A stretch of DNA of 15,498 nucleotides from a virus. Taxonomy: Duplodnaviria; Heunggongvirae; Uroviricota; Caudoviricetes. The notes under the pieces are model-generated. The model was not told the origin of the DNA. It was given only the letters and a program-made list of their open reading frames with translations, and searched no databases. The translations under genes were made by a program, and so were the position numbers. Location of the stretch: IMG/VR virus record IMGVR_UViG_2693429582_000026; one strand, written 5' to 3'. Positions within the stretch are counted from its first letter, which is position 1. Each line of letters begins with the position of its first letter. Below, piece after piece: positions 1,473 to 1,724 of this stretch.

Positions 1473-1549
1473 TGGCGCGTTGTAGTGGAGTCTAACCACT
1501 GACCGATTGCTTAGAAGGCAATTGCTCTGTCCGACTGAGCTAACAACGC
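1473..1549 (-). tRNA. tRNA-Arg, anticodon UCU (argN-like, AGA/AGG decoder)
   Basis: Hand-folded cloverleaf: acceptor GCGTTGT/ACAACGC, D-stem GCTC/GAGC, anticodon stem ATTGC/GCAAT with loop CTTCTAA, T-stem AGTGG/CCACT, discriminator G, encoded CCA. Confidence 0.75.
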
Positions 1550-1562
1550 ATGATGCTGATAA

Positions 1563-1639
1563 TGGACCGCCATCGGGGACTTGAACCCCGCGCAGCCAGC
1601 TTCGAAGGCTGGAGCTCTGTCCCGATGAGCTAATAGCGG
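1563..1639 (-). tRNA. tRNA-Arg-like; anticodon reads UCG by hand folding
   Basis: Acceptor CCGCTAT/ATGGCGG (one G-U), D-stem GCTC/GAGC, anticodon stem CCAGC/GCTGG with loop CTTCGAA, T-stem CGGGG/CCCCG with TTCAAGT loop, encoded CCA. Anticodon assignment needs software confirmation. Confidence 0.65.
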
Positions 1640-1648
1640 TATGTAATA

Positions 1649-1724
1649 TGGTGGCCCTTGCTGGATTTGAACCAGCGACCTGGCGATTATGAGTCGCTCG
1701 CTCTCACCACTGAGCTAAAGGGCC
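1649..1724 (-). tRNA. ileZ: tRNA-Ile2 (anticodon CAU, lysidine type; ileZ/ileX-like)
   Basis: 76-nt cloverleaf GGCCCTTTAGCTCAGTGGTGAGAGCGAGCGACTCATAATCGCCAGGTCGCTGGTTCAAATCCAGCAAGGGCCACCA, close to E. coli ileX as I recall it. A CAU anticodon in this backbone indicates Ile2 rather than Met. Confidence 0.8.

Follow-up and report, generated by a model that had tools for sequence, protein, structure and literature searches.

We analyzed a 15,498-nucleotide (nt) stretch of Caudoviricetes DNA (IMG/VR record IMGVR_UViG_2693429582_000026), the whole of which is called the window below, with a focus on the three tRNA genes that it carries. The trio proved to be the known ileZ-argN-argO cassette found in lambdoid phages of the 933W type (Stx-like), and the prophage that carries it here, in Escherichia coli O103, lacks the Shiga toxin genes (stx). 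Very probably it is a self-contained 933W-type tRNA unit that supplies decoders for five codons that the prophage over-uses. Two results stand out: the prophage is enriched in the very five codons that the trio can read, and argN, the middle gene, is the least constrained of the three. As a discovery the cassette carries little weight, being common and annotated long ago. The analysis fixes the annotation of the window as a 933W-type Q/pR'/tRNA module with TerB cargo instead of stx.

Identification of the three tRNA genes

In the 15.5-kb window, ARAGORN called three tRNA genes and no others, each on the minus strand: ileZ at 1649–1724 with anticodon CAU (CAT), argN at 1563–1639 as tRNA-Arg with anticodon UCG (TCG), and argO at 1473–1549 as tRNA-Arg with anticodon UCU (TCT). 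The Rfam tRNA covariance model RF00005, whose gathering score is 29 bits, placed all three above threshold, with 72.5 bits for ileZ (E = 1.5e-14), 54.0 bits for argN (E = 1.9e-09), and 66.7 bits for argO (E = 6.1e-13). The two programs agree on the positions, which are those stated in a first-pass annotation of this DNA. By hand folding, that annotation had also read the middle gene as a tRNA with anticodon loop CTTCGAA and anticodon UCG, and the third as Arg (UCU), and ARAGORN arrived at the same anticodons. On the identical RefSeq record, the Prokaryotic Genome Annotation Pipeline (PGAP) lists tRNA-Ile, tRNA-Arg, and tRNA-Arg, with a pseudogene flag on none of them.

The argN gene forms a standard 77-nt cloverleaf with anticodon loop CTTCGAA, and reads, 5' to 3', CCGCTAT-TA-GCTC-ATCGGGACA-GAGC-T-CCAGC-CTTCGAA-GCTGG-CTGCG-CGGGG-TTCAAGT-CCCCG-ATGGCGG-T-CCA. 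When stem pairs were counted at fixed cloverleaf positions, no mismatch was found in argN, which has one U5-G68 wobble, or in argO, and ileZ had a single mismatch (A27-C43). All three genes encode their CCA ends. By direct reading, the conserved tertiary positions U8, A14, G18-G19, U33, and U54-U55-C56 are complete in ileZ and argN; the exception among these positions is the argO of the window, which has A56 and not C56. This A56 is unusual, as C56, the partner of G19, is present in nearly all tRNAs. This argO allele is recurrent, with 11 copies in a count of 54 that combined IMG/VR loci with the window.

Minimum-energy folding of each tRNA alone gave no cloverleaf, and the z-scores for argN and argO were weak. 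Such folds are usual for unmodified tRNA sequences, which makes this approach uninformative for tRNAs; the covariance model and the fixed-position pair counts were therefore used instead.

Correspondence with the 933W-type cassette

The window is 100% identical to positions 1483438–1498935 (reverse complement) of the E. coli O103 ML775 record NZ_CP193495.1, where it belongs to a lambdoid prophage adjoining dsdC and torI. The gene order there is Q, the tRNAs, TerB, SASA esterase, holin, lysozyme, terminase, head, and tail genes. According to the annotation, stx is absent from this prophage, and the slot of stxAB is occupied by a TerB-family gene (1303–872) and a DUF3927 gene (875–708), both annotated by PGAP on the minus strand of the window within 708–1303. 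On the other side of the tRNA genes lies the Q antiterminator gene (2166–2600, minus strand), which PGAP names 'antiterminator Q family protein' and whose open reading frame we checked.

In the phages Stx2a_F765 (AP012534.1) and 933W (AF125520.1) the trio bears the names ileZ, argN, and argO, and ARAGORN reports the anticodons CAT, TCG, and TCT in the same order in both phages and in the window. The end of Q and the start of ileZ are 442 nt apart in all three, and over the stretch from the end of Q to ileZ the window matches Stx2a_F765 at 499 of 500 positions, so that every feature of 933W maps colinearly onto the window. The 933W record (1999) gives the order as pR', qut, two possible rho-independent terminators, pT, ileZ, argN, argO, and a terminator upstream of stx. 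It also assigns codons to each tRNA: 'codon recognized: AUA' to ileZ, 'codons recognized: CGH; CGG?' to argN, and 'codon recognized: AGA; AGG?' to argO. These gene names, anticodons, and positions bear out the earlier proposal of an ileZ-argN-argO cassette as in Stx phages, located between Q and the cargo slot. The first-pass annotation did not flag that these features were already on file: the 933W record described the cassette in 1999, together with the anticodons, the promoter, and the terminators, and PGAP annotates argN as a matter of routine.

Compared with 933W, the window has an identical pT and ileZ, a homologous terminator after argO, and unchanged distances to Q, pR', qut, and the two upstream terminators. 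The argN genes are identical at 73 of 77 positions, the window having U5, U26, A57, and C63. The argO genes are identical at 70 of 77 positions. The window gene has a differing U in the D loop and carries A37 and A56 where 933W carries G37 and C56. Its T stem has a compensated G50-C64 pair where 933W has C50-G64, and its T loop reads TTAGACT. The A37 of the window argO is shared with host argU, whereas the argO genes of 933W and Stx2a carry G37. These differences in argN and argO are allelic, and each defining trait of the 933W-type cassette that we could check was present in the window. Overall, the cassettes of 933W-type and Stx2 phages are about 95% identical to that of the window, and they are followed downstream by stxAB where the window has TerB/DUF3927. 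A mosaic joint is visible inside the cassette (1440–2220, minus strand), where the near-identity with Stx2a_F765 from the end of Q to ileZ gives way to differences at 4 of 77 positions in argN and 7 of 77 in argO. Beyond the argO terminator, the window sequence is unrelated to Stx2a_F765.

Predicted decoding identity of ileZ and argN

ARAGORN prints Met for ileZ because it cannot separate Met from Ile2. The gene is identical at 69 of 76 positions (91%), including the whole anticodon loop, to ileX of E. coli K-12, a tRNA-Ile with anticodon CAU, from which it differs by a compensated 6-67 pair (U-A vs. C-G) and by the A27-C43 mismatch at the top of the anticodon stem. The pairs C4-G69 and C5-G68, which are determinants for TilS in tRNA-Ile2, are both retained. 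Together with the PGAP call of tRNA-Ile, this similarity agrees with the earlier reading of the first tRNA as Ile2 (CAU), and we read ileZ as a predicted tRNA-Ile2, a lysidine-dependent reader of AUA. The region upstream of ileZ (1725–1790, minus strand) also resembles that upstream of host ileX (ATTGC...GTTAC...TTAT(T/A)ATCC), and this resemblance in the pT region suggests that ileZ was captured from the host along with its promoter.

Among the Arg tRNA genes annotated in K-12 MG1655, argQ, argZ, argY, and argV have the anticodon ACG, argX has CCG, argU has UCU, and argW has CCU; to our knowledge, these seven are all the Arg tRNA genes of K-12. None of these seven annotations has the anticodon UCG. 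The suspicion that UCG falls outside the usual E. coli Arg set was thus correct, and argN(UCG) truly adds an isoacceptor to the core set of E. coli. In an alignment with the four host types, argN has G18, G19, A20, and C35 in common with the host Arg tRNAs, plus G36, and it is also like them in its 5-nt variable loop and general cloverleaf. It differs from them in its UCG anticodon, in stems that are unrelated in sequence, and in having C1-G72 and U73, where all four host Arg tRNAs have G1 and either A73 or G73. The anticodon loop of argO, CTTCTAA, is identical to that of host argU.

The main identity elements for arginyl-tRNA synthetase (ArgRS) are A20, C35, and U/G36, and the discriminator is a minor element only. 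The purine discriminator of all host Arg tRNAs (A73 or G73) is present in argO (G73), whereas argN has U73. Since the discriminator is minor for ArgRS, U73 weakens the case for arginine charging without abolishing it, and with A20, C35, and G36 all present argN is likely to be charged with arginine.

Promoter and terminators of the cassette

The cassette is preceded by a putative sigma-70-type tRNA promoter, pT (1734–1762, minus strand), recognized by direct reading as TTGCAG, a 17-nt spacer, and TATTAT, with a GC-rich 9-nt discriminator between the -10 element and the first nucleotide of ileZ. All 29 nt of pT match the feature 'pT; putative tRNA promoter' in AF125520.1, and a tRNA promoter at this site is also mentioned in a published comparison (PMC2858043). 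A simple promoter scan missed pT because the -35 element fits at only 3 of 6 positions. An intrinsic terminator found by the terminator scan follows argO (1436–1460, minus strand), with the form AGGCTCGC-TTCG-GCGGGCCT and then T6; its hairpin has a folding energy of -14.9 kcal/mol (z = -2.3), and its counterpart in 933W is annotated as 'possible rho-independent terminator upstream of the stx genes'. We had considered the cassette's own promoter and terminator as a new observation and rejected this, both being already annotated in 933W.

Both elements are conserved well beyond the window. In a set of 70 distinct trio sequences, the -35 TTG and the -10 TTATTAT were invariant at a fixed spacing of 17 nt amid variable flanks, and the sequence upstream of ileZ occurred in at least four unrelated contexts. 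At the other end, the hairpin GGCTCGC-NNNN-GCGGGCC and its T-run were kept after argO in most copies despite unrelated downstream sequence. Since pT and the terminator are conserved amid unrelated flanks, the cassette travels as a promoter, three tRNAs, and a terminator.

This conservation bears on the explanation that the tRNA genes are chiefly conserved patches of homology for swapping the downstream cargo (stx, TerB, and others). The mosaic joint inside the cassette would fit such a role, as would the presence of the same cassette ahead of several unrelated downstream contexts. Recombination of this kind leaves unexplained why the promoter, the terminator, the cloverleaf pairing with its compensated stems, and the anticodons are conserved, and it is compatible with codon supply as a side effect rather than being an alternative to it. 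We consider it very improbable as the main explanation.

Upstream of pT lie the elements of a late operon. The late promoter pR' (2151–2178, minus strand), found by the promoter scan as TTTACG, a 16-nt spacer, and TATCAT, overlaps the end of Q and lies 427–454 nt from ileZ, the same distance as 'pR'; putative late promoter' in 933W. Two tR'-type terminators follow at positions equivalent to those in 933W. The first (2094–2120, minus strand) lies between pR' and the tRNAs and was found by the terminator scan, and the second (1887–1916, minus strand), read directly as GCCAGCC, a 9-nt loop, GGCTGGC, and T6, was missed by the scan because its loop exceeds 8 nt. The generic scans thus recovered a pR'-like promoter and two of the three terminators.

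Codon usage of the prophage

We compared codon usage in genes of the identical record (24 early, 27 late, and 2 cargo genes) with a baseline of 35 host core genes (11,662 codons). The codons that the trio is predicted to read were all more frequent in the prophage than in the host, at 7.8 vs. 1.6 per 1000 for AGA, 4.4 vs. 0.9 for AGG, 8.3 vs. 3.7 for AUA, 6.5 vs. 2.7 for CGA, and 14.3 vs. 5.7 for CGG. When the 59 synonymous codons were ranked by the prophage/host ratio, AGA, AGG, AUA, CGG, and CGA took ranks 1, 2, 3, 5, and 7. A rank sum that low is reached by 7 of about 5.0 million five-codon subsets, a chance of about 1e-6 in a test that was chosen after the data had been seen. These counts fit codon supply by the trio.

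The two codons assigned to argN were enriched in different parts of the prophage. CGA was enriched mainly in the early genes (odds ratio 4.4, p = 2e-9) and CGG mainly in the late genes (odds ratio 3.0, p = 7e-14), where it made up 25.5% of the Arg codons. NinG (2784–3389, minus strand), in which 9 of 23 Arg codons are CGA, is the strongest single consumer of argN codons in the window. The first-pass annotation had suggested that a UCG anticodon may relate to the codon usage of the cargo or the late genes. The link to prophage codon usage held for the late genes (CGG, 3.0-fold over the host) and extended to the early genes (CGA, 4.4-fold); the cargo genes TerB and DUF3927 contain no CGA and no CGG, with three AGA codons, and cargo codon usage was accordingly rejected as an explanation of argN in the window. 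In Stx2a_F765, ATA accounts for 15 of the 20 Ile codons of stx2A, and AGA/AGG for 8 of its 24 Arg codons.

Proposed role of the cassette

From the arrangement of these elements, we propose that transcription from pT would provide the tRNAs both during lysogeny and soon after induction, when the early genes rich in CGA, AGA, and AUA are read. The cassette follows Q, pR', and the two tR' terminators and so forms part of the late operon. Q-antiterminated late transcription is therefore expected to read through it too, so that the Q-modified polymerase starting at pR' would also transcribe it in late growth, when the demand for CGG triples. Host RNase P and enzymes that process 3' ends would release the three mature tRNAs from the primary transcript.

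Host TilS would then convert ileZ into a tRNA-Ile2 with lysidine 34 that reads AUA, and argO (UCU) would read AGA and AGG. Once charged by host ArgRS, argN (UCG) would read CGA through Watson-Crick pairing and CGG through U-G wobble, as the wobble rules for U34 allow, and its reading of CGU and CGC would depend on the modification of U34. In the host, the reading of CGA depends entirely on inosine-A wobble by tRNA-Arg(ICG), and argX, a single-copy gene, provides the sole reader of CGG; argN would relieve both. Because argN adds an isoacceptor that E. coli is without, the cassette would raise the decoding capacity for exactly the five codons that are enriched in the prophage.

Distribution and constraint

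A 401-nt query around the trio matched 3067 of 5426 complete E. coli genomes, roughly half. Matches over at least 80% of its length were found in 2228 genomes. The number of matching places reached 14 in a single genome and was 6 in ML775. The query also matched 290 phage records, mostly of Stx2 phages, with a best identity of 95.2% and most matches between 90 and 95%. A search with argN alone gave 812 genomes at a minimum identity of 90%; among the matches listed, every record annotates it as tRNA-Arg and PGAP flags it as a pseudogene in none of the genomes. In an exact scan, the 19-nt D arm of argN (TAGCTCATCGGGACAGAGC) was absent from all enterobacterial species-representative genomes, and the 19-mer had four unrelated matches, three in actinobacterial contigs (Actinophytocola, Hamadaea, and a metagenome-assembled genome (MAG) of Gaiellaceae) and one in an Alcanivorax MAG. 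Given the absence of the D arm from the enterobacterial representatives, the cassette seems to be restricted, at least in this exact form, to the accessory genome of hosts like E. coli.

We next measured variation among about 150 complete cassettes from IMG/VR, anchored on ileZ, taking the mean column diversity in a MAFFT alignment of the 70 distinct trio sequences. Mean diversity was 0.008 in ileZ, 0.056 in argN, and 0.057 in argO, compared with 0.09–0.22 in the spacers between the tRNAs and 0.26–0.54 in the flanks, so that the tRNA bodies were 4–9 times less diverse than the spacers and flanks. Within the argN family, the cloverleaf was 96.8% paired, vs. 30–52% in slid controls, and three stem pairs showed compensated changes on both sides. 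Among the 54 copies counted, the argN body also occurred with the anticodon TTG (two copies, called Gln by ARAGORN) and with TCT (one copy); in each case the anticodon differs by one base and the rest of the tRNA is of the argN type.

Several observations weigh against codon supply as the role of the cassette. The C1-G72 pair and U73 of argN depart from every host Arg tRNA, and its Rfam score is the lowest of the trio. At least one stem mismatch was present in 23 of 103 argN copies, compared with 4 of 130 argO copies, and argN was missing from 28 of the 150 ileZ-anchored cassettes, so that it looks less constrained than its neighbors. The lack of CGA and CGG in the cargo genes points the same way. 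Across loci, the share of CGA and CGG among Arg codons was 26.0% near argN-bearing cassettes and 23.3% near those without argN, a small difference that we regard as weak (uncorrected p = 0.008, loci not independent). Finally, the rare-codon enrichment could stem from foreign base composition rather than from co-adaptation with the tRNAs.

Part of this evidence would also be expected if argN were a decaying passenger, that is, a former tRNA gene, perhaps a duplicate, that persists between the useful ileZ and argO with little or no decoding. The low covariance score, the atypical C1-G72 and U73, the 22% of copies with stem mismatches (some of them clearly degraded), the appearance of the same body with anticodons UUG and UCU, the cassettes without argN, and the weak tracking of CGA/CGG usage by its presence can all be read in this way. 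The argN of the window, however, has a perfect cloverleaf, all conserved tertiary positions, and an encoded CCA; 80 of the 103 copies are free of stem mismatch, the diversity of the gene is on par with that of argO and well under that of the spacers, and the PGAP annotations mentioned above carry no pseudogene flag for it. We therefore regard a passenger origin as improbable and favor codon supply, with argN as the least constrained contributor.

Sister cassettes and tRNA-cleaving defenses

In related lambdoid loci of IMG/VR, ARAGORN reported the anticodon order cat-ttt-tgt-tcc, in which Lys(UUU)-Thr(UGU)-Gly(UCC) after ileZ replaces argN-argO. The sister Lys(UUU) gene has its acceptor, D, and T arms in common with argN. 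The anticodon arm of this Lys gene, TCAAC-CCTTTAA-GTTGA, has been remodelled with compensating changes and carries C33 and the sequence UAAGUU at positions 36–41. The sister Thr(UGU) copy retains UAAUCA. The nuclease AriB of the PARIS defense cuts host tRNA-Lys(UUU) and tRNA-Thr(UGU) at U36AAUC|A41, and a change of U39 blocks cleavage (PMC12409363). The Lys-Thr-Gly sister set could be an anti-PARIS cassette of temperate phages, judging from its anticodons and the remodelled Lys arm. The sister Lys(UUU) and Thr(UGU) genes, set against PARIS, are a lead of some wider interest, one that lies outside the window.

These loci bring in a counter-defense explanation for the window itself, in which the phage Arg tRNAs would replace host tRNA-Arg cut by anticodon nucleases of the colicin D or abortive-infection type, and rare-codon supply would be secondary. 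Phage tRNAs have been proposed in general as replacements for nuclease-cut host tRNAs, with colicin D, which targets tRNA-Arg, named among the E. coli nucleases (PMC10264068). The sister set, present in 14–15 loci in the same slot, contains the two prime targets of PARIS AriB, with a Lys gene that differs from the host cleavage site at positions 39–41. In addition, the UCG anticodon, C1-G72, U73, and divergent anticodon stem of argN would set it apart as a substrate from every host tRNA-Arg. Against this, no tRNA-Arg nuclease is known to restrict lambdoid phages and our analysis found none, the argO loop equals that of argU and so shows no evasive change, and the hint stems from the sister loci and not from the window's own genes. 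The five decoded codons match the five enriched codons specifically, which leaves the defense argument unneeded, and we judge counter-defense to be a quite unlikely primary role.

The tRNA sets that virulent phages use against tRNA-cleaving defenses offer a comparison, as the tRNA-Lys(UUU) and tRNA-Thr(UGU) with which T5 counters PARIS AriB are likewise phage tRNAs added to the host pool. The window instead has one Ile2 and two Arg tRNAs, and PMC12409363 reports neither type as a target of AriB.

A related possibility concerns the middle position of the cassette alone. One tRNA body, with a CCGCCA.../...UGGCGG-U-CCA acceptor and the same D and T arms, occurs as Arg(UCG), as Arg(UCU), with a Gln anticodon (UUG), and with a Lys anticodon (UUU), the last with a compensated, remodelled anticodon stem and in a cassette with Thr(UGU), the other prime PARIS target. 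This position might be a fast-evolving, anticodon-switching scaffold shaped by tRNA-cleaving defenses or toxins and not by codon usage, with argN(UCG) as a nuclease-proof arginine decoder. We give this speculation little probability beside the supply of decoders for enriched codons.

Other features of the prophage

The prophage around the cassette (NZ_CP193495.1, 1478000–1527999) shows signs of decay. Its replication gene O is frameshifted, the gene for a theta subunit has an internal stop, Rad52-family and methylase genes are truncated, and an IS66-family element lies among the tail genes. All three tRNA genes are intact despite this decay. Between the tR' terminators and pT, PGAP annotates a DNA methylase remnant (1765–1878, minus strand) as a pseudogene, 'incomplete, missing N-terminus'.

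Rfam also detected other RNA elements in the window. The anti-GcvB small RNA AgvB (96.5 bits; 448–509, plus strand) and STnc100 (142.7 bits; 510–703, minus strand) lie back to back just past the cargo genes, upstream of the SASA esterase/lysis region. Two antirepressor genes (4920–4186 and 4111–3389) are immediately preceded by matches to isrK, to C4 antisense RNA, and to the a1/b1 sites that C4 targets (4973–5171, minus strand). By analogy, this isrK/C4 arrangement resembles the immI-type antisense control of the antirepressor in P1/P7.

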